A stretch of DNA of 61,907 bases from a virus. Taxonomy: Duplodnaviria; Caudoviricetes. The position numbers and the translations under genes were made by a program. The notes beneath the pieces were generated by a model, which did not search any database, was not told the DNA's origin, and was given only the letters and a program-made list of their open reading frames with translations. The DNA lies in the IMG/VR virus record IMGVR_UViG_3300023184_000128, positions 1 through 61,907 of that record; one strand, given 5' to 3'. Shown here in pieces: positions 9,907-20,339 of the stretch; the stretch's first letter is position 1; the number at the start of each line of letters is the position of its first letter.

Positions 9907-10185
9907 ATGACTAATAATAAAAATGAACAATTATTAAAAAAATTAATATCAGTAGCTTTAAACTTTGATAAAACATTTGATGAGTTAATGGCTGATAATG
10001 AATTTCAAAATCATTTTGCTAATAACAAAATTTTTAAAAATGAAATTAGTGTTATGAGTAAATTTTTATGGCTAGAAATTCAAACTTTATCGGACAAAGT
10101 ACAAAAAAGTTTTATTAAAAATACATATAAAACGCCCGATAATTCAAAAATTGATATTGAAGAATTTAACAAAAAATTTAATTAA
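9907..10185 (+). CDS. Early hypothetical protein (first gene of early operon 1)
   Basis: Leader CTAACAAAGGTAA at 9888-9900. Confidence 0.75.
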   Translation: MTNNKNEQLLKKLISVALNFDKTFDELMADNEFQNHFANNKIFKNEISVMSKFLWLEIQTLSDKVQKSFIKNTYKTPDNSKIDIEEFNKKFN

Positions 10186-10235
10186 CGTATAACGCCTTTA
10201 AATAGGCGTTATACGATAGTTAAAAAACTATCATA
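10186..10235 (+). promoter_or_regulatory. Two-hairpin RNA module, copy 1
   Basis: 12-bp stem 10186-10197/10204-10215 then GATAGTT-AAAA-AACTATC. Confidence 0.6.
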
Positions 10236-10267
10236 AAAAACTAACAACTAACAAAGGTAAAAAACAA

Positions 10268-11200
10268 ATGACTAATAACTTAAACAAAGTATCGGCCAAA
10301 GACTATTTAACTACAATTAGAGATAATTTAGTTGAACAATTAGAAAAAAATTCAAATAACTGGCATAAATCTTTTATCAATAAGAATATGCCAGTCAATG
10401 CCGTGACTGGTAAACATTATAACAGCACGAATTTTTTTAATTTAAACTGGGTAGCCAATAGTAATAATTATGCTCAAAATATCTGGGCATCTTTTTTAGA
10501 CTGGAAAAAAATCGGTTGTAAAATTAAAACTGGAGAAACACACAAGGCCAAAGTTTTATATTATGGCTCATTTATTAAAGAGAATGAAAAAACAAAAAAA
10601 GATGAGACAATCGCATTTTTAAAAGCAACGCCAGTTTTTAACATTGCTCAAGTTGATTTGTCGGAATGTAAATTAAAATTTGATAATACGGACAATGTAA
10701 ACAAAGTTGTATCTATTCAAGAAATAGATAATTTTGTTAATGATACTGGGGTTGAAATTAAACACAGTAGTGACGGCCGTTGTTATTATGCAAAAACAAC
10801 TGATTATATTCATATGACAAACAAAGAGAATTTTGTTAAAACTGAATATGCCAATGAGACAAATAACTATTATTCCGTGTTATTTCACGAATTAATACAC
10901 TCAACTGGCCACGCTCAAAGGCTTGACCGCTTTAAAGATAATGACAAAAAATTTAAAGACGACGCTCAACAGTCTTATGCCTTTGAGGAATTGATTGCGG
11001 AATGTGGGTCTATAATGCTGTGTCAACAGTTTAACTTAGAAAAAACAATTAGAGTTGACCACGCTCTATATATTAAAAGTTGGATATCAGCTTTAAAAAA
11101 TGACGTAAAATTTTTAACATCGTCATTAACACGGGCATATAAAGCAACTGATTATTTACTTAAAAAAATAAAAAAAGTTGAATTAAAGGCGGTTGCTTAA
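10268..11200 (+). CDS. ardC: ArdC-like antirestriction/ssDNA-binding protein with zincin domain
   Basis: P.N..TG..Y...N, W.SF..W, VFN..Q; HELIHSTGH..RL.R; YAFEELIAE; Y..SW. Confidence 0.88.
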   Translation: MTNNLNKVSAKDYLTTIRDNLVEQLEKNSNNWHKSFINKNMPVNAVTGKHYNSTNFFNLNWVANSNNYAQNIWASFLDWKKIGCKIKTGETHKAKVLYYGSFIKENEKTKKDETIAFLKATPVFNIAQVDLSECKLKFDNTDNVNKVVSIQEIDNFVNDTGVEIKHSSDGRCYYAKTTDYIHMTNKENFVKTEYANETNNYYSVLFHELIHSTGHAQRLDRFKDNDKKFKDDAQQSYAFEELIAECGSIMLCQQFNLEKTIRVDHALYIKSWISALKNDVKFLTSSLTRAYKATDYLLKKIKKVELKAVA

Positions 11201-11909
11201 TATGGAATATAAACCGCAAAAAAGACTATTAGGCATTAATAACATTAAAATGCTTAAAAGTATAAAACTAGGTTATTTGACCGCAATTTTGCATTTAGCC
11301 CCGCACAAGTTAAGCGGGGTTAACATATGCCCTAAGGCGTCACAAGGTTGTGCTATGGCTTGTTTAAATACAAGCGGTAGAGGTCGATTTGAATTTACTC
11401 AAAAAAGCCGTTTAAATAAAACTTATTACTTTTTAAAAGACCGCCAAAAATTTTTATTACAACTTGATAATGAAATAAAAAACTTTAAAAAAAGAGCAAT
11501 TAAACAAGGTTTAAAACTTGCTATACGTTTAAATGGTACTAGTGATTTAATCTGGGAGAGATATCCAGTAAGGGACAATAAAAATATTATGGAATTAAAC
11601 CCAGATATAATATTTTATGATTATACAAAAATTAAAAATAGATTAAATGATAAGTTGCCTAAAAATTATTATTTAACATTTAGTAAGTCGGAAAGTAATG
11701 ACGACGAAATAAAAGATTTATTAACAACAGCTTTTAATATAGCGGTTGTTTTTAAAGATAAGCTACCTAAAACTTATCTAGGCCGTAAAGTAATTGACGG
11801 TGATATAAGTGACCTAAGATTTTTGGATAAAAAAGGGTCAATAGTAGGCTTAGCAACTAAGGGCAATGCAAAAACCGATAATACGGGGTTTGTAGTAAAT
11901 GTAAACTAA
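11193..11909 (+). CDS. Phage gp88-like Cys-motif protein (start likely 11202, MEYK)
   Basis: CP.AS.GC...CL..SGRG, RLNGTSD, FYDYTK, GD.SDLRFLD. Confidence 0.75.
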   Translation: MLNMEYKPQKRLLGINNIKMLKSIKLGYLTAILHLAPHKLSGVNICPKASQGCAMACLNTSGRGRFEFTQKSRLNKTYYFLKDRQKFLLQLDNEIKNFKKRAIKQGLKLAIRLNGTSDLIWERYPVRDNKNIMELNPDIIFYDYTKIKNRLNDKLPKNYYLTFSKSESNDDEIKDLLTTAFNIAVVFKDKLPKTYLGRKVIDGDISDLRFLDKKGSIVGLATKGNAKTDNTGFVVNVN

Positions 11910-11928
11910 CAATGGAGGATAAAACAAA

Positions 11929-12135
11929 ATGAGACAATTAACAAAAAAGCAAAAAAAAATATTAGATAATTATAAAAATATTTTTAGAATTGAGGAATTG
12001 CCAAACGGCGTTTTTGAGCAATTAGAAAAAATAAACGATACTGAAATTTTATGGAGTGAGACAAATCGTTATTTGTCGGATAACTACTATAAAAATTTGT
12101 ATAATAAAAATAACAATGGAGTAATTAAGTTATGA
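11929..12135 (+). CDS. Early hypothetical protein
   Basis: GGAGG RBS; ORF track. Confidence 0.7.
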   Translation: MRQLTKKQKKILDNYKNIFRIEELPNGVFEQLEKINDTEILWSETNRYLSDNYYKNLYNKNNNGVIKL

Positions 12136-12293
12136 TTTATAATATATCAATAACAACTATTTTTATAATTTTATTAATAGTTGTATTAAAGAATTTTATT
12201 GAGGTTATTTATTTTACTAAAAATAATAATTTTGATAAAAAATATAAAGCAACACGAATTAATGCTAATAAATACAGCGTTGATAAGTGGTAA
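12132..12293 (+). CDS. Small membrane protein (53 aa)
   Basis: ATGA overlap; MIYNISITTIFIILLIVVLK hydrophobic N-terminus. Confidence 0.45.
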   Translation: MIYNISITTIFIILLIVVLKNFIEVIYFTKNNNFDKKYKATRINANKYSVDKW

Positions 12294-12318
12294 ACTAAAC
12301 AATAACAAAGGAAAAAAT

Positions 12319-12507
12319 ATGACTGAAAAAAATAAAACATATAAATTAGAGACACGAACAGTTGAAATAATAACACTTAATGCTAAAAATGAAGAACAAG
12401 CAAAAGAAATGGCAATTAGTGGATATTCTGATAATGTAAGGTCTATGGAATTTTACATTGATGAGATTGAGGATATAACACCAACTGAAAAACTAACTAA
12501 CAACTAA
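12319..12507 (+). CDS. Early hypothetical protein (true start MTEKNK)
   Basis: TAACAAAGGAAAAAAT leader before ATG at 12319. Confidence 0.7.
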   Translation: MTEKNKTYKLETRTVEIITLNAKNEEQAKEMAISGYSDNVRSMEFYIDEIEDITPTEKLTNN

Positions 12508-12519
12508 AAAGGAAAAAAT

Positions 12520-12708
12520 ATGAGCAATAGACAAGTAAAAACGGCTTATGAATTTACAAATTATAAGCCCATTAGCGTACATAAAAAAGTATATGATGAG
12601 TTAACCGACTTATCCAATAATATTTATGACGTAAAATTAAGTTATGCTAAAACGATTGAGCATTTAATTAATTACTATAAAGAAAATAAAATAAAGAGGT
12701 TAAAATAA
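12520..12708 (+). CDS. Small ribbon-helix-helix-like DNA-binding protein (putative)
   Basis: YKPISVHKKVYDEL..LSYAKTIEHL beta-alpha-alpha pattern. Confidence 0.55.
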   Translation: MSNRQVKTAYEFTNYKPISVHKKVYDELTDLSNNIYDVKLSYAKTIEHLINYYKENKIKRLK

Positions 12709-12709
12709 T

Positions 12710-13045
12710 ATGGCTCAACATATATCGATTAAACACTACTTAAATGAGGAGTGGCTATTTAATTTAATAGACAAGTGTAAGACGATAGCGTGGCAATTTA
12801 GAGAAATAGAGAATAGTAAAGACTATTTTAAAGAAATAAATAAAAATCTTAAATTGCTACCTATTGAATATGCTTGTGATTATGACAAGCCAAAAATAGT
12901 TAGGAGGGTTAATAAGGTTTTTAATTATAAATGCGATATAGACAAGCCATTAACAAAAGAGGATGACAATCTTTTATTAAGTGATTGTAATATAGAAATA
13001 CATTTAGATAAAAGTAAATTGGTTGATATTTTTATAGTGGCTTAA
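12710..13045 (+). CDS. Hypothetical protein
   Basis: ORF ending early operon 1. Confidence 0.65.
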   Translation: MAQHISIKHYLNEEWLFNLIDKCKTIAWQFREIENSKDYFKEINKNLKLLPIEYACDYDKPKIVRRVNKVFNYKCDIDKPLTKEDDNLLLSDCNIEIHLDKSKLVDIFIVA

Positions 13046-13338
13046 ATCTTTTTAATATCGATTATTACTGAAGTGGGTATTAAAGTTGTATTGGCAATCT
13101 CATCAATTACGCCCGTTTTTTCGTCTTTAAGAGCGTAATCTCCAAAGACCCTAGCAACGCCTTTATTATGGCTTAATAAATGCCCCTTTGTAGTACATAT
13201 TGGCAATTTTGCTGTCATTAAATCATCTATTGATTGCCACGTGCTATCACTAGTTATGTCATACCATTTAATCTCTACTAATGGGTATTTCTCTATTTCT
13301 TTTTTTGCTTTTTTATTTATTAGTTTTCTTTTTATCAT
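13042..13338 (-). CDS. Conserved-type phage hypothetical protein
   Basis: LVEIKWYDITSDSTW..C.T.G..IP motif. Confidence 0.7.
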   Translation of the reverse strand: MIKRKLINKKAKKEIEKYPLVEIKWYDITSDSTWQSIDDLMTAKLPICTTKGHLLSHNKGVARVFGDYALKDEKTGVIDEIANTTLIPTSVIIDIKKI

Positions 13339-13424
13339 TTATATTTATATGTACGTTGCCAACGCTTGAATTTAAGTGCTTATTATGTACCTCATTAAAT
13401 TGATTAATGAAAGTTTTCCAGTCA

Positions 13425-13940
13425 CTATTTTTCAATAATCGTTTCTGCTGTGATGTCGATGATTTGTTTATTTTCATTTATATTTTTTTCTAATTCCGAC
13501 AATCTTTTTTCCAACTGCTCTCTATTCATACCCTCAAGTCCTATATGATTAATTTCTTTTTTATCTACAAAAAAACCCGCCATTTGTCCCGCTCTAAATT
13601 CTGCATTAATTGCGGAGGCAAACTGATTTTTTTCTTCTGCTTTATTTCTTAATCGCTCAAATACTTTATATGTTTTTAATTTGTCCTTTTCATATTTATT
13701 TAATTCCTGAGATAATCTTTTTTCTAAGTATCTACATATATGAGGGTTAATTTCTGGGTTTGTTAACCTTGAGGCAATTTCAAAAGGTTTTCTATTCGGG
13801 TCTTTGGTTGTATATCCCGCTTGTATACAAGCGTCTACTTTGGATATTTGTCCCCAGTTAGCAACTAATATATCTACAAAAGCCCGTTGCTTTGGAGTTA
13901 ATTCCGTGCTAAGTTTTACTTCGTTTTTTCTACGTCCCAT
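13425..13940 (-). CDS. terS: Terminase small subunit
   Basis: LTPKQRAFV..ACIQAGY..ASRL HTH pattern; AINAE..G..AG. Confidence 0.82.
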   Translation of the reverse strand: MGRRKNEVKLSTELTPKQRAFVDILVANWGQISKVDACIQAGYTTKDPNRKPFEIASRLTNPEINPHICRYLEKRLSQELNKYEKDKLKTYKVFERLRNKAEEKNQFASAINAEFRAGQMAGFFVDKKEINHIGLEGMNREQLEKRLSELEKNINENKQIIDITAETIIEK

Positions 13941-14019
13941 AAATTATTGACCTCATAATAATATAAATATGTTATTTTAGCTATACACTCAAAAAATCCT
14001 TATAAATAAAGGCTTATGC

Positions 14020-14577
14020 TAAAAAAGTATTTAAAATCAATGACTTAACAATGTACCTATCATTTTACGCCATTTTTTAAGTACAAAGTGAAATAACCCG
14101 CATAGTTCTAACCCTCATTTACACGGAATGCAAAAAAGTATTTAAAATCAATAACTTAACAAGATGACAAAAATGAACGCTGAAAAGTTAAAAAAATAAA
14201 CAAGCATTTACGCCATTTTTCCGTTTTTCAGTCCTAAACCCTTTGTATAGAAAAAAAATACTAAAAAATTTTTGCAAAAGGTAGAAATATCGCTGAAACG
14301 CTGAAAAGCTATATAGAATGAGGGTTATTCGTTCAGCGTCACGTGGGATAATCCCAACTATCGCTGAAAAACAGCCAAAATAGCCCCTCATTTTTTTTCA
14401 GCCACTGAAACACTGGGAACTATGTGGCTTATTTCATTTTAGTGAACTTTTACTGTCCTATCTACTATAAAAGGTATATAAATCAATGACTTAACTATTA
14501 AAAAATGCCTTTTTACCCTCAATTTATCCCATGTAATTTACTACCCTATCAAAAAAGCTATATAAATCAATAACTTA
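14020..14577 (+). promoter_or_regulatory. Four direct-repeat IHF-consensus sites with upstream A-tracts
   Basis: AATCAAT(G/A)ACTTA at 14035, 14146, 14481 and 14565 matches WATCAANNNNTTR. Confidence 0.7.
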
Positions 14578-14629
14578 CAAGCCCCGTGGCTCGTGGCTCG
14601 TGGTAGCTGATATATGACACACTAGCCAA

Positions 14630-14775
14630 CCAACACGGCTCACGACAACCTATGATTGCACAACTTACGATTGCACAATTTATACGAGTACAACTTACAC
14701 GAGTACAACTTACACGAGTACAACTTACGATTGCACAACTTATACGAGTACAACTAAAAGTTGCACAACTATAAA
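14630..14775. repeat. 15-bp-periodic tandem array (ACAAC core)
   Basis: Core starts at 14645, 14660, 14675, 14690, 14705, 14720, 14735, 14750 and 14765. Confidence 0.9.
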
Positions 14776-14878
14776 TTTAAAAAAATTATTTTTACATTTT
14801 TTAAAATACAACTATAAAGTGATTTACATAATATATTTTATATGAAAATGTAATATGTAAACTAACAAAGGAGAAAAT

Positions 14879-15106
14879 ATGCCTAGATATGCACTAACAG
14901 AAAGTACAAAAAACTTAAATGGAAAATTTCCATTTGAAAAAGTGCAAGTACAAAAATATAATATCTCAAAAGATAAAATTGGATATTTTATTCAAGTGCT
15001 AGAGTGGGATAAAAAAGCCGAAATTTACAAGGCTCTTTATACCATTGATAGTAAAGAGTTTAACTTTGAAGATAATTCGGACAAGGCAAGAGAAATTTCC
15101 GAATAA
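14879..15106 (+). CDS. Early hypothetical protein (first gene of early operon 2)
   Basis: Leader CTAACAAAGGAG. Confidence 0.75.
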   Translation: MPRYALTESTKNLNGKFPFEKVQVQKYNISKDKIGYFIQVLEWDKKAEIYKALYTIDSKEFNFEDNSDKAREISE

Positions 15107-15117
15107 TTTAGCTAACC

Positions 15118-15165
15118 CAATGCCCTCAACACAGGGCATTGAGATAGTTAAAAATAACTATCATA
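15118..15165 (+). promoter_or_regulatory. Two-hairpin RNA module, copy 2
   Basis: 9-bp stem 15118-15126/15133-15141 then GATAGTTA-AAAA-TAACTATC. Confidence 0.6.
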
Positions 15166-15178
15166 ACAAAGGAGAACA

Positions 15179-15310
15179 ATGAAAAAACGAGAAGAACAAA
15201 AGTTAGTTAAACTTTTAAAAAGTCTTTACGGAAAAAATTGGCTTTTTAATTGGCAAGGTCAAGACAATGGCTTTGAACTAACATTACAAGTATGGAAAGG
15301 AAAAAAATGA
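15179..15310 (+). CDS. Small early protein (43 aa)
   Basis: TAACAAAGGAG RBS; MKKREEQKLVKLLKSLYGKNWLFNWQGQ..; ATGA coupling to next gene. Confidence 0.65.
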   Translation: MKKREEQKLVKLLKSLYGKNWLFNWQGQDNGFELTLQVWKGKK

Positions 15311-15558
15311 AAAGTCCATTTCATATTTTAGATAGTGCAAAAAACTTTGGCGATGCAGTTAAAGAAAAAGCAAAGCCGATTGAATATCATTTCAAAGCAA
15401 TAGACAAAGACGGCATACCAAGAGTTTTTGGATATGGCAGAAATAGACTTGAGGCTAGATTACAATGTGAAATAGCCTTGAGAGAATATCTTCTGAGAAA
15501 ATTAGAAAACAATGTAATAATGTGCCCAGAAGATTATATGATTAAAGAAGATAATTAA
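15307..15558 (+). CDS. Early hypothetical protein (start MKSPF)
   Basis: GAAAGG RBS; D.DGIPRVFG motif. Confidence 0.7.
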   Translation: MKSPFHILDSAKNFGDAVKEKAKPIEYHFKAIDKDGIPRVFGYGRNRLEARLQCEIALREYLLRKLENNVIMCPEDYMIKEDN

Positions 15559-15563
15559 AACTT

Positions 15564-15591
15564 TAGTACCCCCTAATTTTAGGGGGTACTA
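15564..15591. terminator. Perfect inverted repeat, putative terminator or processing stem
   Basis: TAGTACCCCCTAA..TTAGGGGGTACTA; no clear U tract. Confidence 0.55.
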
Positions 15592-15681
15592 CACCTCATC
15601 AAACCCCAAAATCGTGCGTCTACGGGCTTTTAAATAAGACTTTTATACAACTAAATAGTGAAAAATAAGGCTTTTTATCGT

Positions 15682-15720
15682 TTGACAATAAAAACGAATA
15701 ATGGGAGATTGTGGGATAAT
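15682..15720 (+). promoter_or_regulatory. Putative sigma70 promoter overlapped by TGGGA repeats
   Basis: TTGACA at 15682; ATGGGAGATTGTGGGATAAT downstream. Confidence 0.5.
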
Positions 15721-15742
15721 AACAAACTAACAAAGGAAAAAA

Positions 15743-16294
15743 ATGAGAAACTTACAGTTAATAAAAGAAATAAAAGTTAAGGATAATACTTTTATTTTAA
15801 ATTCTAATGAAATAGATAAATTAGAATTAAATGAAAATAAAAATTATGTAAAAACTGTTTTAACTAAATTAAAAAATAGTTTTACAAAATTAAATATTAA
15901 ATACATCGTTGGAGAATTTTCTGGTGGCAACGATGATGGTGGTTTTGATAGTGTATATTTAGCAAACGCTGAATTAGACAAAGTAGAAATACCCGAAGAA
16001 GATAAAAATCTTTTTAGACAATGGATAGATTATAAAAAAATCTATACCTATGAAAATGAGAAAGATAAAAAGATTTCTGTTTATTCAACTAACACAGATA
16101 GAATGGTAAATGTTTTAGATGACCTTGAGGACTTACTTTATAAAGCGGGTTGCCTTGAAGAATATGGCAGTTTTGCGGGAGAGTTTAGTGTAAGAGGAAC
16201 TGTGAAACTAAATGTACTTACTCATAAATGGGAATTAACTGGAGAACAATCAGTTGAACATTATGAAGATGTGACAGAAAGTGGGGAACTATAA
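15743..16294 (+). CDS. DUF6878-like protein
   Basis: EFSGGNDDGG motif; paired with a DUF6915-like gene. Confidence 0.55.
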   Translation: MRNLQLIKEIKVKDNTFILNSNEIDKLELNENKNYVKTVLTKLKNSFTKLNIKYIVGEFSGGNDDGGFDSVYLANAELDKVEIPEEDKNLFRQWIDYKKIYTYENEKDKKISVYSTNTDRMVNVLDDLEDLLYKAGCLEEYGSFAGEFSVRGTVKLNVLTHKWELTGEQSVEHYEDVTESGEL

Positions 16295-16638
16295 TGGCTA
16301 CACCCGTAATACACGCACAAGCAACAGTAAATCGTTATGGTGGACGCATTGAAGATTATATTGCTATCCATAAGTGGTTTGACTTTACAAAGTCTTACCA
16401 CCCAGATTTTAGACACAGAGCATTAAGACATCATTCACTTGGTGTTGAAGAATGTGTTGAAAAGTTTGGCGATTATATTATCAACTCAGATAATAAAAAA
16501 GTACCCGTTAAAACAATCGGCGAACAACATATTATGGAAGACTGTGGTTTTATTCCATCCGTTAGTGATTGGTTAGTAAATTTACAGCCTAAAAGATTTA
16601 TGATGGACGCTAAAAAACTAGAAAGGAAAGTAGCATAA
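16294..16638 (+). CDS. DUF6915-like His-rich protein
   Basis: H..A...GG..EDY..IH.WFD.K..DFRHRALRHH..G..EQH..ED.G.IP. Confidence 0.7.
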   Translation: MATPVIHAQATVNRYGGRIEDYIAIHKWFDFTKSYHPDFRHRALRHHSLGVEECVEKFGDYIINSDNKKVPVKTIGEQHIMEDCGFIPSVSDWLVNLQPKRFMMDAKKLERKVA

Positions 16639-16796
16639 TGAAACCAAACAAAGACTGTATAAACTGTGATGTTTCAAGCAATTACGTTTGTTTTGAAACC
16701 GAAGATATGTTTATGAAAGAAAACTATCCCAATTATTTTTACAATGATGATTGTGAATGGGAGTTAAAACCAACAACTAAGAAAGGAAAACTATGA
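16638..16796 (+). CDS. Small Cys-containing early protein (52 aa)
   Basis: TAATG coupling; MKPNKDCINCD..VCFE. Confidence 0.55.
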   Translation: MKPNKDCINCDVSSNYVCFETEDMFMKENYPNYFYNDDCEWELKPTTKKGKL

Positions 16797-16960
16797 AAGA
16801 AGATATAAAAGTTATTAAACAATATATCAAAACTTTTAATGACAGAAAGTTAAGAGAGGAATATAGATTATATACCTCACTTGAAAGACCAACGATACTT
16901 GAAAACTATTTCAAGGACTTTATTAAACAAGAAATAAACCAAAGGGGGATAGGAGTATGA
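16793..16960 (+). CDS. Small early protein (55 aa)
   Basis: GAAAGG RBS; ATGA overlaps at both ends. Confidence 0.6.
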   Translation: MKEDIKVIKQYIKTFNDRKLREEYRLYTSLERPTILENYFKDFIKQEINQRGIGV

Positions 16961-17181
16961 GAATAGCCATAGGTAATTCTTTTGATTTAAAAAGTGTATC
17001 AGATGTAAAGAACTATCTAAAGATATGTACCGACAGCAGATTAGAAAATGAATTTTATTCTATTTCTAATCAAAATTGGACAGATAGTATAAGTGATACT
17101 TTTAAAACGCTTATTGAGAATGAACTTTTATCACGTGGATATGAGTTTGGTTCACAATTAATTAAACCATACGAGGAATAA
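16957..17181 (+). CDS. Early hypothetical protein
   Basis: AGGAG RBS; ORF track. Confidence 0.7.
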   Translation: MRIAIGNSFDLKSVSDVKNYLKICTDSRLENEFYSISNQNWTDSISDTFKTLIENELLSRGYEFGSQLIKPYEE

Positions 17182-17183
17182 GT

Positions 17184-17393
17184 ATGAGCCATAAAAATAG
17201 AATGTTTTATAACTATATGACTGAACAAGACGCTTGGGACGAGTACCTTGAACTCATAAAAGAGGACGAGCATTTTGCAGAACAATGGACAAATACCAAA
17301 GACGATTTTTTAGATTGGTGTGAGGCAGATGATATTGTTCTGGTGGACAATAAACAATTAGCAAACGAACTAGAGGAGGCACAATTACAATGA
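17184..17393 (+). CDS. Small acidic early protein
   Basis: Strongly D/E-rich 69 aa; GAGG RBS. Confidence 0.7.
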   Translation: MSHKNRMFYNYMTEQDAWDEYLELIKEDEHFAEQWTNTKDDFLDWCEADDIVLVDNKQLANELEEAQLQ

Positions 17394-17674
17394 GCGATAA
17401 GTTAGAGGGCTATACTAAATTTAGCGAAATAGAAGAAAATAATTTAGAACTACGATGGCTAGAAAGAATAAATAAATTGTTAATTGGTAAAAAAATAGTT
17501 AGAGTAGTATATATGTCTAAAAAACTAGCAGAAGAACAAGGTTGGTATAAAAGACCTATCCAAATAAGATTAAATGATGGCACGTGGTTAACGCCGTCAA
17601 TGGATGATGAGGGTAATGATGGAGGTGCATTATTCACAAATGATGAAAAATTACCAACTATACCCGTAATATAA
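17390..17674 (+). CDS. Early hypothetical protein
   Basis: L.GKKI..V.Y..W..PSMDDEGNDGGALFT. Confidence 0.75.
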   Translation: MSDKLEGYTKFSEIEENNLELRWLERINKLLIGKKIVRVVYMSKKLAEEQGWYKRPIQIRLNDGTWLTPSMDDEGNDGGALFTNDEKLPTIPVI

Positions 17675-17688
17675 ACAAGGAGGAAAAA

Positions 17689-17955
17689 ATGGACAATGAA
17701 ACAATACAATATAAAGGCAAAACTATTTGTCAAAAACATATAGTGCATTTTTGTTTAGAATGTTTAGGAGAAGATAGCAGATGTGATACGTGTAATGGCA
17801 TAGGAGAATGGGAAAGTACAGTAGATTTAGATTTTGGATATGACCCACGATCTTTAAATGAATTGTATTTAGTGGACACAGACGATAATTATTATGAAAT
17901 TAAAGAAAAAGATTTTCATAAATATATAGACCCAATAAACAAGGAGGAAAAATGA
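17689..17955 (+). CDS. Early protein with CxxC..CxxCxGxG zinc-finger
   Basis: CLECLG..CDTCNGIG; AGGAGG RBS. Confidence 0.7.
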   Translation: MDNETIQYKGKTICQKHIVHFCLECLGEDSRCDTCNGIGEWESTVDLDFGYDPRSLNELYLVDTDDNYYEIKEKDFHKYIDPINKEEK

Positions 17956-18179
17956 AAGACGTAAGATACGTAATAGACTGGCTAGAAGAAGAACTAGCAC
18001 ACTTTGAAATGGCAGTAGAACAACATAACTATGTATCTAAAGCAGATGAGATTAGATACAGAATGGCACAAGAACTATTGGCTTGGATATTGGAATACAA
18101 GTTTGATCCTAAGTATTCCGTGAGCCGTGTTCCTTGCGATACGGGACACGATACAAAGGCCTTTGGGGGTAGAACATGA
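17952..18179 (+). CDS. Early hypothetical protein
   Basis: AGGAGG RBS. Confidence 0.7.
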   Translation: MKDVRYVIDWLEEELAHFEMAVEQHNYVSKADEIRYRMAQELLAWILEYKFDPKYSVSRVPCDTGHDTKAFGGRT

Positions 18180-18268
18180 ATATAAAAAAATATGAACGCA
18201 ATATTTGGTTATTGGTAATTATTGTTGCTTGGCTATTATTAATTGTTAGCATTATTGTATGGAAGTAA
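18176..18268 (+). CDS. Membrane micropeptide (30 aa)
   Basis: MNIKKYERNIWLLVIIVAWLLLIVSIIVWK; ATGA overlap. Confidence 0.55.
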   Translation: MNIKKYERNIWLLVIIVAWLLLIVSIIVWK

Positions 18269-18447
18269 GAGATTTTAGAATTACTTTTGAAAGCAGAAGT
18301 GCTATAACTGATAATGCAATAACTGAATTTACAGTTAGGGCTAAAAATTATTGTGATGCTGAAAAGAAAGCATTAGCAAGATTTGATAAAAGAGAAAAGC
18401 ATAGCTGTATAATTATTATTGAAAAAATGAAAAAGGAAAAAAGATGA
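18259..18447 (+). CDS. Early hypothetical protein
   Basis: ORF track. Confidence 0.65.
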   Translation: MEVRDFRITFESRSAITDNAITEFTVRAKNYCDAEKKALARFDKREKHSCIIIIEKMKKEKR

Positions 18448-18546
18448 TAAGCAAATACGTTAAAGATATAAAAAAATTACTTAAAAACTATCATAAAAAA
18501 TATGATTGCTTTGGTAATAAACTAAAACAAACAAAGAGGAAAACTA

Positions 18547-18864
18547 ATGGCTGACATAAAAGAACTATTAGACAAAAAAATAGAAGAAAGATTGAATGAA
18601 GAAATATGCAAACTTGCAAGTGAAGTTTATTTTTATTTTATAAACCGATTAGAAATAGAAGATAAATGCGTTGTAAATGTTGATGACTATACTGAGAATA
18701 CTGATTTAGGTAGAGAAATCTATTATCGTATTGAAAATATTCTTTTTGAGAATATGAAAAAACCACCGACTAAAAATTGGAGTATGTTTGGCGATGTAGA
18801 TTTATTTGCTGAAATTAAAGGACTTGTTAAACGTTGGGAAAACAATAAAAAGAGGTTGCATTAA
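18547..18864 (+). CDS. Early hypothetical protein
   Basis: AGAGG RBS. Confidence 0.7.
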   Translation: MADIKELLDKKIEERLNEEICKLASEVYFYFINRLEIEDKCVVNVDDYTENTDLGREIYYRIENILFENMKKPPTKNWSMFGDVDLFAEIKGLVKRWENNKKRLH

Positions 18865-19151
18865 TGACTAAACAAAAACCAATGAATGTTTTAAGACAAG
18901 CACAATTATTAAAAGTTTATAATGACTTGCTTGATGTCGTTAAAGAAATGCTTGATAACAAAGTAGAGCCAGATATTCTAGCCTCTACCTTAGTTGCACA
19001 AGGACTTAGATTATATAGAGGAGTTTTAGATGATGACACCTTTAAAGCAACGATTGATGTGATTGTAAAGAACGCAAGAGAAATGGGCATACGGCCTTTG
19101 TTTGAGCCACACCCACCTAAAGAAGAAAAAAAGGAAGAAACAATAAACTAA
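18864..19151 (+). CDS. Early hypothetical protein
   Basis: TAATG coupling; QGLRLYR. Confidence 0.7.
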   Translation: MTKQKPMNVLRQAQLLKVYNDLLDVVKEMLDNKVEPDILASTLVAQGLRLYRGVLDDDTFKATIDVIVKNAREMGIRPLFEPHPPKEEKKEETIN

Positions 19152-19210
19152 CATGGATCAAATAATAGAGGGAATATTAGCATTTATATTATTATTTTTA
19201 ATATTTTAAT

Positions 19211-19300
19211 ATGATTGCGTTAGTATCGGACTTAGGCTTTTGGTGGTTTACACTATCGGTAGTGCTGTGTCTTTTAATTTATACCATATATAGAAAATAA
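19211..19300 (+). CDS. Membrane micropeptide (29 aa)
   Basis: MIALVSDLGFWWFTLSVVLCLLIYTIYRK. Confidence 0.45.
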   Translation: MIALVSDLGFWWFTLSVVLCLLIYTIYRK

Positions 19301-19337
19301 TATTTGACATTAGTGGTTTAATAAATATATTAACACT

Positions 19338-19445
19338 ACTAATAGTGTCGTAGCTATTAGGTCTCTTTTAGATAAGAGTATAAACATATCTTACCTTTGT
19401 TAGACAATGGAGGGGTTAGTATGCGGTTTCTAATCCCTCTTTAAA
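19338..19445 (+). ncRNA. Candidate anti-RBS small RNA 1
   Basis: TTGACA(19304)/TATATT(19326) promoter; stems 19339-19360, 19363-19378 and 19409-19440; unpaired CATATCTTACCTTTGTTAG antisense to early leaders. Confidence 0.6.
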
Positions 19446-19448
19446 CTT

Positions 19449-19640
19449 ATGAGATTACAACATATAAAAAATTTATTAGAAAAAATAGAAGATATTGAGT
19501 GGTTAGTAGAAGCACTTAATATTGACTTAGAACAATACCCTGAGTTTGATAGCGAACTTTTAAAAGATAAATTTTGGAAACTTTTAGAAGAAAAAAAATT
19601 AAAAGATAAATTTAAAGTTTATATAGGCGAATGGGAATAA
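19449..19640 (+). CDS. Hypothetical protein
   Basis: ORF track; no clear RBS. Confidence 0.55.
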   Translation: MRLQHIKNLLEKIEDIEWLVEALNIDLEQYPEFDSELLKDKFWKLLEEKKLKDKFKVYIGEWE

Positions 19641-19720
19641 TCCTTACACCAGAATTTTGGTTAGTTATTGGATGGGCTGTATTTTTGATATGGCTCACTT
19701 GGCTCAGTCATAAAAATTAA
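19631..19720 (+). CDS. Trp-rich membrane micropeptide (29 aa)
   Basis: MGIILTPEFWLVIGWAVFLIWLTWLSHKN. Confidence 0.45.
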   Translation: MGIILTPEFWLVIGWAVFLIWLTWLSHKN

Positions 19721-19754
19721 CTAAGCCAAGTAGCTTCATCTTCGTTATAAGGCA

Positions 19755-19829
19755 TCATTTGTAATTTTTATAAATTAAATAAAATACTAAAATGAAACTA
19801 ACAATAAAAAATATTGTTATTGTAGTCAT
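19755..19829 (-). CDS. Membrane micropeptide (24 aa) coupled to hsp20
   Basis: TAATG overlap; MTTITIFFIVSFILVFYLIYKNYK. Confidence 0.4.
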   Translation of the reverse strand: MTTITIFFIVSFILVFYLIYKNYK

Positions 19830-20251
19830 TATTTAATATCTATTTTAACGCCTTCAATTTCTTTAGGCTCATTATAACCAAGTTTAATTTTTAATAAACC
19901 ATCTTTCATTTCAGCTTCATCAACTATTACATCTTTAGCTAATTCAAATTGTTTGAAAAACTTTCTAAAAGCTAAACCTTTTTGAACGTAATCTACGTTC
20001 TTATCTTCTACTTTACCCTCAATAGTTAAAATACCGTCTTTAACTTCTACAAGTACATTTTCTTTATTGTATCCAGCTAAACCGATTTCTAAACCATATT
20101 TACCTTTTGAGTATTTTACTACATTGTAAAATGGGAATGATTGAACTTTTGACCAACTGTCAAAAATTGTTTCAAAGGCATCATCAAAAAACTTTGTTGA
20201 TCCGTTGAATAATTGTTTGTTTAAATTATTGAAAACTTCTAGGTTTGTCAT
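19829..20251 (-). CDS. Small heat-shock protein Hsp20 (IbpA-like)
   Basis: FPFYNV, LAGY, L.IEG, KGLA.RKF..F.L, A.MKDGLL.I alpha-crystallin motifs. Confidence 0.93.
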   Translation of the reverse strand: MTNLEVFNNLNKQLFNGSTKFFDDAFETIFDSWSKVQSFPFYNVVKYSKGKYGLEIGLAGYNKENVLVEVKDGILTIEGKVEDKNVDYVQKGLAFRKFFKQFELAKDVIVDEAEMKDGLLKIKLGYNEPKEIEGVKIDIK

Positions 20252-20339
20252 AATTTACTCCTTTTTAAGCAAGTTAATTAGGTCTACCCACATGGTACAA
20301 CCTATGACAGTATATAGTTAAACCTCCCCCTTTTTCAAG
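20252..20339 (-). promoter_or_regulatory. RpoH-like promoter and ROSE-like thermometer 5' UTR of hsp20
   Basis: CTTGAA-N15-ACTATAT; UTR hairpin; ACTTGCTTAAAAAGGAG with UUGCU opposite the SD. Confidence 0.55.

Follow-up and report, generated by a model that had tools for sequence, protein, structure and literature searches.

Structured element at the end of the plus-strand gene block

The DNA analyzed here (hereafter, the window) is the full IMG/VR virus record IMGVR_UViG_3300023184_000128, which is 61,907 bp long, was judged complete, and has a G+C content of approximately 30%. We describe an element located at the far end of a 10-kb block of plus-strand genes (9907-19720), just ahead of the convergent gene for an Hsp20-family protein (19829-20251, minus strand). 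The element comprises (i) a sigma-70-type promoter motif, (ii) a structured plus-strand RNA of approximately 105 nucleotides (nt) with three hairpins, and (iii) a tract between the second and third hairpins that is complementary to ribosome-binding site (RBS) leaders of plus-strand block genes. It is followed by a small operon that ends in a gene for a membrane peptide of 28-29 amino acids (aa). A preliminary description of the window had proposed at this place a multi-target small RNA (sRNA) directed against Shine-Dalgarno (SD) sequences and serving as an early shut-off or latency switch. The coordinates of the element, the operon and the matching leaders are collected in Table 1.

The promoter motif, with 11 of 12 positions matching, is the top promoter-like site within 17-22 kb. 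The two shorter stems and the unpaired stretch lie where the preliminary description had placed them; so does the 11-bp stem, which that description had called GC-rich, a generous term for a helix in which five pairs are G-C and two are G·U. Folding of the plus-strand RNA gives -30.9 kcal/mol (z = -3.3), and the folding energy of stem 3 is -15.0 kcal/mol. As a terminator, stem 3 lacks a T-run (TTTAAAC or TCTAAAT follows instead), its tail is not conserved and holds at most 3-4 U before AAA, and a terminator scan did not flag it. Comparison of the whole window with Rfam 15 gave no match at gathering scores, and a search of 19250-19520 with E values up to 10 returned only a chance-level hit to IS128 (13.3 bits vs a gathering score of 80). 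No tRNA or tmRNA was found in the window.

Table 1. Coordinates of the element, the downstream operon and the candidate target leaders in the window
Feature	Position	Strand	Remarks
Sigma-70-type promoter	19304..19331	+	TTGACA at 19304, 16-nt spacer, TATATT at 19326-19331; motif evidence only
Structured RNA, ~105 nt	19338..19440	+	predicted 5′ end based on the -10 box; 3′ boundary placed at the stem 3 foot
Stem 1, 7 bp, 8-nt loop	19339..19360	+	CTAATAG (19339-45) with CTATTAG (19354-60)
Stem 2, 5 bp, loop UUAGAU	19363..19378	+	CTCTT (19363-67) with AAGAG (19374-78)
Candidate pseudoknot	19370..19391	+	loop-2 AGAU (19370-73) with AUCU (19388-91)
Unpaired stretch CATATCTTACCTTTGTTAG	19385-19403	+	
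Seed tract CCTTTGTTAG	19394..19403	+	single-stranded in the model; complement of leader CTAACAAAGG
Stem 3, 11 bp	19409..19440	+	19409-19 with 19430-40; GGAGGGGTTAG in the 5′ arm; loop variable
First open reading frame after the RNA, 63 aa, optional cargo	19449..19640	+	ATG 8 nt past stem 3, no SD between
Gene for the 28-29-aa membrane peptide, constant cargo	19631..19720	+	
Leader CTAACAAAGGTAA	9888..9900	+	before ATG 9907; candidate target; predicted duplex -17.7 kcal/mol
Leader CTAACAAAGGTAA	10248..10260	+	before the ArdC-like gene; candidate target; predicted duplex -17.7 kcal/mol
Leader TAACAAAGG	12303..12311	+	before ATG 12319
Leader CTAACAAAGG	14862..14871	+	before ATG 14879; predicted duplex -18.0 kcal/mol
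Leader TAACAAAGG	15164..15172	+	before ATG 15180
Leader CTAACAAAGG	15727..15736	+	before ATG 15743; predicted duplex -14.8 kcal/mol

Conservation and covariation of the RNA

Pattern scans identified 41 further loci, found on viral contigs, 32 metagenome contigs and one contig of a metagenome-assembled genome (MAG). Together with the window, these 42 sources provide 35 distinct 170-nt variants. The promoter pattern TTGACA-16-TA[T/C]ATT is kept in 34 of the variants, and the remaining one is cut by the end of its contig. With a covariance model of the RNA (R1), the window and each of 34 relatives yield a single copy, with scores of 108-146 bits. Mean pairwise identity amounts to 92% in the RNA, 82% in the downstream peptide gene and 70% in the 150 nt upstream, the first figure being inflated by a few points because most loci were retrieved by a 20-nt pattern inside the RNA. 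Eight viral contigs were retrieved independently of the seed tract, through a stem-2 pattern and the downstream peptide, and all eight have an intact seed. In the relative reached via the 63-aa neighbor, the stretch from the promoter to the ATG is nearly unchanged, whereas the flanking coding DNA has diverged freely; within the RNA, its differences are confined to the hairpin loops and one 2-nt insertion.

Covariation was tested for the three hairpins and the 4-bp loop-to-linker pairing in a MAFFT alignment (A2) of 30 distinct sequences. The modeled pairs are formed in 99.6-99.8% of the cells, with the MAFFT and model-guided alignments in agreement; in a control where the 3′ partner was slid by 1-3 columns, only 43-65% of the cells pair. 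Changes on both sides were seen in six pairs, three of them in stem 1, two in stem 2 and one in the candidate pseudoknot, a number reached by none of 500 shuffles. In stem 1, an A-U pair is replaced by G-C in five sequences and by G·U in two, three sequences have G·U or U·G, the loop measures 8-10 nt across the variants, and the whole stem is rebuilt in the lineage of one relative (L013). All cells of stem 2 pair (100%), with changes on both sides only in the L013/L017 lineage. The pseudoknot AGAU/AUCU, in which also 100% of the cells pair, has its single change on both sides (A-U to G-C) in L013/L017 only and is regarded as tentative. The arms of stem 3 are nearly invariant in sequence around five types of loop and provide no compensatory change in the 30 sequences; its two G·U pairs are kept in 30 and 29 of them. 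The RNA is assigned to the plus strand because its conserved G·U pairs would turn into C·A mismatches if the RNA were read from the minus strand. These observations support a real, conserved, structured plus-strand RNA with its own promoter motif at this locus. The minimum-energy middle structure given by RNAfold (GUCU/AGAC and UAAGA/UCUUA) was rejected: it is broken by L013 and by insertions and deletions, and 14 of 30 cells are unpaired at one of its pairs.

The seed CCTTTGTTAG is invariant in 35 of the 35 variants, including the L013 lineage with its rebuilt stems 1 and 2. Its UUAG part, which is not anti-SD, is invariant as well. Insertions of 1-2 nt (A, AA or C) occur just 5′ of the seed, and six seed forms were distinguished. 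Thus, the alignment of relatives called for by the preliminary description revealed an invariant seed, whereas the co-variation with the leaders that it had anticipated was not found.

The distribution of the element was also approached through other queries. A blastn search with 18500-20300 against the isolate-phage collection gave no match, and the 95-aa neighbor used as an anchor yielded no loci. With the Hsp20 gene as an anchor, 80 loci were kept, and the 72 of these not known to hold the element produced only two chance-level matches to the covariance model (E 0.27 and 0.4), a result that is uninformative on the element because the Hsp20 module is shared with unrelated contexts. The pattern TATATTAMCACTACTAAT retrieved 18 new loci, none with the element, and these were discarded as chance matches. 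The covariance model detected no element in the genome of Pelagibacter phage HTVC023P. Two relatives (L153 and L155) lack the whole 18.3-20.4-kb segment, element included, and the element module is therefore accessory. As a separate observation, a 5640-bp contig (RFVO01000098.1, L049) of a Chitinophagia-labelled MAG carries the element and its neighbors; in all likelihood, phage DNA was binned with that MAG here, and the contig is not evidence for a host.

Downstream operon and transcripts

The product of the first open reading frame (ORF) behind the RNA varies among the loci: it is a protein of 63 aa (in the window), of 59 or 77 aa, a membrane peptide of 23-28 aa, or the 28-29-aa peptide itself. 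The gene for the latter lies downstream of the element wherever a locus extends far enough, and the peptide has the consensus MxIIFTPEFWLVIGWASFLIWLTWLG.., with 14 invariant columns in 20 sequences. Neither Pfam nor PHROG provided a family for the small ORFs near the element. Measured from the CCCTC motif, the first ATG is 9 or 11 nt away, and once 10. The absence of a U-tract, the start codon that follows after 8-10 nt and the constant peptide suggest an operon leader rather than a free-standing sRNA gene of approximately 100 nt. In this respect the sRNA of the preliminary description, which was to end near 19445, finds no support, as there is no terminator-like U-tract at that position.

Two further candidates for a role of stem 3 were rejected. 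One is a 7-codon upstream ORF in its loop (MRFLIPL), for which the loop ATG is present in only two of five loop types; in each of these types (L026, 1479-1596; window, 19421-19444) it opens a 7-codon frame that ends 1-4 nt before the main ATG. The other is a bridge that brings together a split RBS; judged by reasoning only, this geometry leaves approximately 13 nt to the ATG and is unconvincing.

Lake metatranscriptome assemblies, available as contigs only, include low-depth contigs (2 and 2.35) over the element in two of four cases. One RNA contig starts at 19294, that is, 44 nt upstream of the predicted start, and may derive from read-through, from the other strand or from DNA. Coverage of the region in the four assemblies is heaviest over the Hsp20 gene.

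Complementarity between the seed and the shared leaders

The six leader matches listed in the preliminary description are all present, each located 6-10 nt ahead of an ATG and matching the seed over 9-13 nt. One of them belongs to the gene 10268-11200, whose ArdcN and zincin peptidase domains agree with the label ardC given to it there. The seed core, CCUUUGUUAG, complements the core of the leader perfectly, and the leader form [C/A/U]UAACAAAGG is common to the plus-strand block genes. In the 61.9 kb of the window, CTAACAAAGG occurs five times: four times on the plus strand, before ATGs, and once on the minus strand, within the element. A search with the 19-mer, allowing up to three mismatches, gave two matches vs 0.03 expected. 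The complementarity between seed and leaders in the window is not a chance one.

The leader family [C/A/T]TAACAAAGG(A/T), together with a second form AACAATGGAGG, precedes many plus-strand block genes in the window, in the relative G001 and in many other relatives, and the same leader type stands before the plus-strand block genes of the relatives that carry the element. When linker duplexes were computed against 94 start regions, the top five (-14.8 to -18.0 kcal/mol) all fell on plus-strand block genes, the distributions for these and the other start regions differed (Mann-Whitney p = 4e-4), and 3 of 200 shuffled seeds reached five sites at -14 or below.

Proposed mode of action and alternatives

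The best reading of the element, held tentatively and at somewhat less than even probability, is a leader-embedded antisense RNA that occludes the shared RBS leaders. Host RNA polymerase would start at the sigma-70-type promoter and produce a plus-strand RNA, the first ~105 nt of which would fold into a 5′-terminal hairpin, a second hairpin with a possible loop-to-linker pseudoknot and a stable third hairpin, so that the CCUUUGUUAG tract would be exposed single-stranded between hairpins 2 and 3. This RNA would be the leader of the small operon ending in the 28-29-aa membrane peptide and could be active as part of the full transcript or once cleaved behind hairpin 3. The tract would pair with the RBS leader [C/A/U]UAACAAAGG of many plus-strand block genes, the ArdC-like gene among them, and by covering the SD it would lower their translation. 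The sequences themselves establish the promoter motif, the plus-strand fold, the invariant tract, its complementarity to the leaders and the layout of the operon; transcription, the 5′ and 3′ ends, a possible processing, and pairing and repression in vivo belong to the interpretation. We favor action in trans because the full 10-mer, UUAG included, is invariant even in the lineage with both upstream hairpins rebuilt, and because the tract is displayed between hairpins behind its own promoter. What stands of the multi-target anti-SD sRNA is the conserved plus-strand RNA, its invariant tract complementary to the shared leader, and the location of the five best predicted targets in the plus-strand block. 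A broader version of the reading, in which a lytic phage of SAR11/LD12-type hosts would use one 10-nt tract to occlude the leader of a whole class of its genes, the ArdC-like anti-restriction gene and other accessory genes, and would couple this shut-off to expression of the membrane peptide, is doubtful.

Several results weigh against action in trans. The conserved 10-bp duplex is A/U-rich and of modest stability (-11.7 kcal/mol), and folds of single sequences leave part of the seed paired, differently in each homolog. The pairing over 13 nt, noted for two leaders in the preliminary description, is restricted to the seed type of the window (5 of 35 variants); only 8-10 nt of pairing are conserved, because relatives carry insertions of 1-2 nt beside the core while their leaders are unchanged. 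Thus, G001 has a seed with the AA insertion, yet its ArdC leader is still ATAACAAAGGTAAAC. No covariation between seed and leaders was seen, as the 10-nt core never varies and the flanking insertions are unmatched in the leaders. HTVC023P, a marine isolate, has leaders of the CTAACAAAGGAG type, such as CAACTAACAAAGGAG before gp26, but no element, and the leader motif is therefore older than the RNA and independent of it. L153 and L155 share genes of both the plus-strand and the minus-strand blocks with the window yet lack the element as well. Given these two relatives and HTVC023P, the element cannot serve the whole phage group as a core switch for early shut-off. Finally, in all 35 variants the start codon follows stem 3 at a fixed distance of 8 or 10 nt with no SD between, and in viral contigs the peptide occurs only together with the element (8 of 8 contigs retrieved via the peptide; a ninth contig starts at the peptide). 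With the missing terminator, this fixed spacing and one-to-one link point to a role in cis.

The main rival explanation, which we consider rather unlikely, is a purely cis-acting leader of the small-peptide operon. It would determine stability, termination or translation for the ORF 8-10 nt past hairpin 3 and hence for the hydrophobic 28-29-aa peptide, perhaps a toxic one. The 5′-terminal hairpin would protect the mRNA, and the SD-like GGAGGGG would be sequestered through pairing with CCCUCU in stem 3 or, for a time, with CCUUUGUU further upstream, as is known from type I toxin mRNAs; the match to other leaders would be a by-product of an anti-RBS directed against the RNA's own RBS-like sequence. 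In line with this explanation, the spacing of the ATG is kept in spite of differing first ORFs, the plus-strand GACAATGGAGGGG is similar to AACAATGGAGG, the second type of leader, present for example at gene 11929, an alternative hairpin of 8 bp can be formed between CCUUUGUU and GACAATGGAGGGG (-3.9 kcal/mol), and relatives that keep the same plus-strand block genes do without the module, which is thus dispensable. However, the alternative hairpin is much weaker than stem 3 and has no covariation support. No conserved start codon stands at SD distance after GGAGGGG: the real ATG is 35 nt away, and the ATG in the loop belongs to a minority of the loop types. The diversity of the first ORFs speaks against a ligand-specific riboswitch, no Rfam cis-regulatory family matched the element, and the invariance of UUAG in the seed finds no explanation in a cis role.

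A protein-binding site is an improbable alternative. It could lie on DNA, for example, at the imperfect palindrome TTGTtagACAA (19398-19408), or on RNA; the likeness to the leaders would then reflect a shared protein-recognition motif, and the hairpins would have other roles, such as that of a partial terminator. The conservation of the stem 3 arms and the linker in sequence, and not only in pairing, fits such a site, as does the leader motif CTAACAA, which recurs before many genes, in HTVC023P too, and would suit a common RNA-binding translational regulator. On the other hand, the covariation in stems 1 and 2 is of the RNA type and is accompanied by G·U pairs, no candidate for the binding protein was identified, the neighboring small ORFs having no family, and an operator placed ~60-100 nt downstream of a start site would be unusual.

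Least probable, and indeed highly improbable, is a minus-strand gene for a small peptide (CTAACAAAGG-N6-9-ATG) with the plus-strand RNA as its antisense partner, similar to type I toxin-antitoxin pairs. The 25-aa minus-strand ORF noted in the preliminary description exists (19387..19310). It has the typical start layout of this phage, with a hairpin, CTAACAAAGG and an ATG at 6-9 nt; the ATG is present in all variants, most of them have almost the same first 11 codons (MF[I/M]LLSKRDL..), and constraint on two strands could help to explain the very high conservation. Its reading as a toxin is nevertheless contradicted by the relatives, in which the ORF is frameshifted and yields 26 distinct products of 12-41 aa across 42 sources. 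Some variants have a hydrophobic tail after codon 12 (TLLVVLI) and others a polar one (NTISSVNIIIETLMSN...), because indels of 1-2 nt in loop 1 shift the frame. In L013, paired changes preserve the stems, but 6 of the first 11 residues are different, with most changes at first codon positions (manual count). Together with the frameshifts in the ORF, this pattern is typical of constraint on an RNA and not on a protein. The G·U pairs likewise favor the plus strand, and no conserved minus-strand promoter-like site was seen downstream, where the sequence is that of a variable gene.

Comparison with known regulatory systems

The c4 RNA of phages P1 and P7 and the CI RNA of P4 are leader-embedded phage antisense RNAs with target sites in their own operon, and they provide immunity in temperate or satellite elements. 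The element resembles them in having a structured RNA directly behind a promoter at the head of an operon, with short single-stranded stretches that complement RBS or leader regions; c4 and CI RNAs are released or active without a classical terminator of their own, and the element also lacks a terminator. It differs from them in that the complementary sites are provided by RBS leaders of no fewer than six other genes, within a group of phages described as lytic, and in that it has no sequence or structure match to any Rfam family. T4 RegA is a protein translational repressor that recognizes degenerate AU-rich sites. In both cases, a single phage factor is proposed to lower the translation of many phage genes at their RBS regions, but here the factor would be an RNA pairing with a shared 10-nt leader, and repression is a proposal.

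RsaE and RoxS are chromosomal C/U-rich anti-SD sRNAs with terminators and CCCC motifs. As in these sRNAs, a pyrimidine-rich motif between hairpins could pair with the G-rich SD of several mRNAs; in contrast to them, the element is phage-borne, has no U-tract terminator, and pairs with the SD plus the upstream leader (CUAACAAAGG). Type I toxin mRNAs, such as those of tisB/IstR-1, zorO/OrzO and aapA1/IsoA1, have a long structured leader before a hydrophobic peptide of approximately 30 aa, and the element shares this layout, together with an SD-like sequence locked by a CU-rich anti-SD and a single-stranded region that might serve as a standby or target site. For the plus-strand peptide as a type I toxin, the conserved small hydrophobic ORF behind a structured leader is thus present. 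However, no gene for an antisense or divergent antitoxin RNA was found at the element locus, optional ORFs stand between the leader and the peptide, and 35 nt separate the first ATG from the SD-like sequence that would be locked.

HTVC027P is the one member of this phage group that has been studied. A search of one literature library found no report of regulatory RNA in pelagiphages, and PMC9599517 contains neither 'promoter' nor 'small RNA'. We regard the element as a real, undescribed phage RNA motif for which a role in trans is plausible, and as a concrete candidate for post-transcriptional control in phages of SAR11-type hosts. Silencing via the common leader, if true, would make it a compact RNA-only regulon switch in a lytic phage, the RNA equivalent of T4 RegA. 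Even if it acted only in cis, the element would constitute a structured leader not described before and linked to a conserved mini-membrane protein.

Phage group, host and gene content

The large terminase of the window is 77.7% identical to its counterpart in HTVC023P, and all DNA sources found to hold the element come from lakes, ponds or fresh water, which makes a freshwater relative of SAR11 (LD12) the probable host. PMC12753301 describes HTVC027P, a phage of the HTVC023P type, as lytic, as lacking an RNA polymerase of its own and depending on the host enzyme, and as having early genes that are all of unknown function. For phages of this type, a sigma-70 promoter is therefore the expected signal, and the lytic lifestyle described there makes the latency switch suggested in the preliminary description unlikely. 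The designation of the plus-strand block genes as early in the preliminary description is putative.

The minus strand of the window carries the genes for DNA polymerase, helicase, primase, portal and terminase, and the plus-strand block includes the ArdC-like gene, GP88, DUF6915 and many small ORFs. In HTVC023P (MN698239.1, L130), nearly all genes from DNA polymerase to terminase run one way; the window differs from it by its 10-kb accessory block (ArdC-like, GP88, DUF6915) on the opposite strand. The Hsp20-family gene next to the element is a mobile module with relatives in 108 viral stretches, including the 80 that were kept, and most of these relatives stand in unrelated contexts with only ~19736-20320 in common. 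The element locus is a cluster of mini membrane peptides: two tiny hydrophobic ORFs on the plus strand, 19153-19209 (18 aa, MDQIIEGILAFILLFLIF) and 19211-19300 (29 aa), lie just 5′ of the promoter, and the 18-aa ORF MDQIIEGILAFILLFLIF is well kept in the relative L002.

Several repeats and hairpins were noted elsewhere in the plus-strand block. The large intergenic region before the plus-strand gene 14879 contains, at 14630-14779, approximately ten tandem 15-nt units (ACAACTTAC followed by ACGAGT or GATTGC), an array that looks like iterons or operators. The same intergenic region contains, at 14016-14577, three to five copies of a repeat of ~31 nt (AAAAAAGTATTTAAAATCAATGACTTAACAA and variants), which may be repeated promoters or binding sites. 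Directly 5′ of the CTAACAAAGG leaders at 10248 and 15164 (10195-10247 and 15120-15163, respectively), there is a G+C-rich hairpin with no T-run and, after it, ATAGTTAAAAA(N)AACTATCA or AAAAACTATCATAAAAAA, a combination that could be a processing or promoter signal of the plus-strand block. The AACTATCATAAAAAA part has a third copy at 18482 (18482-18500).

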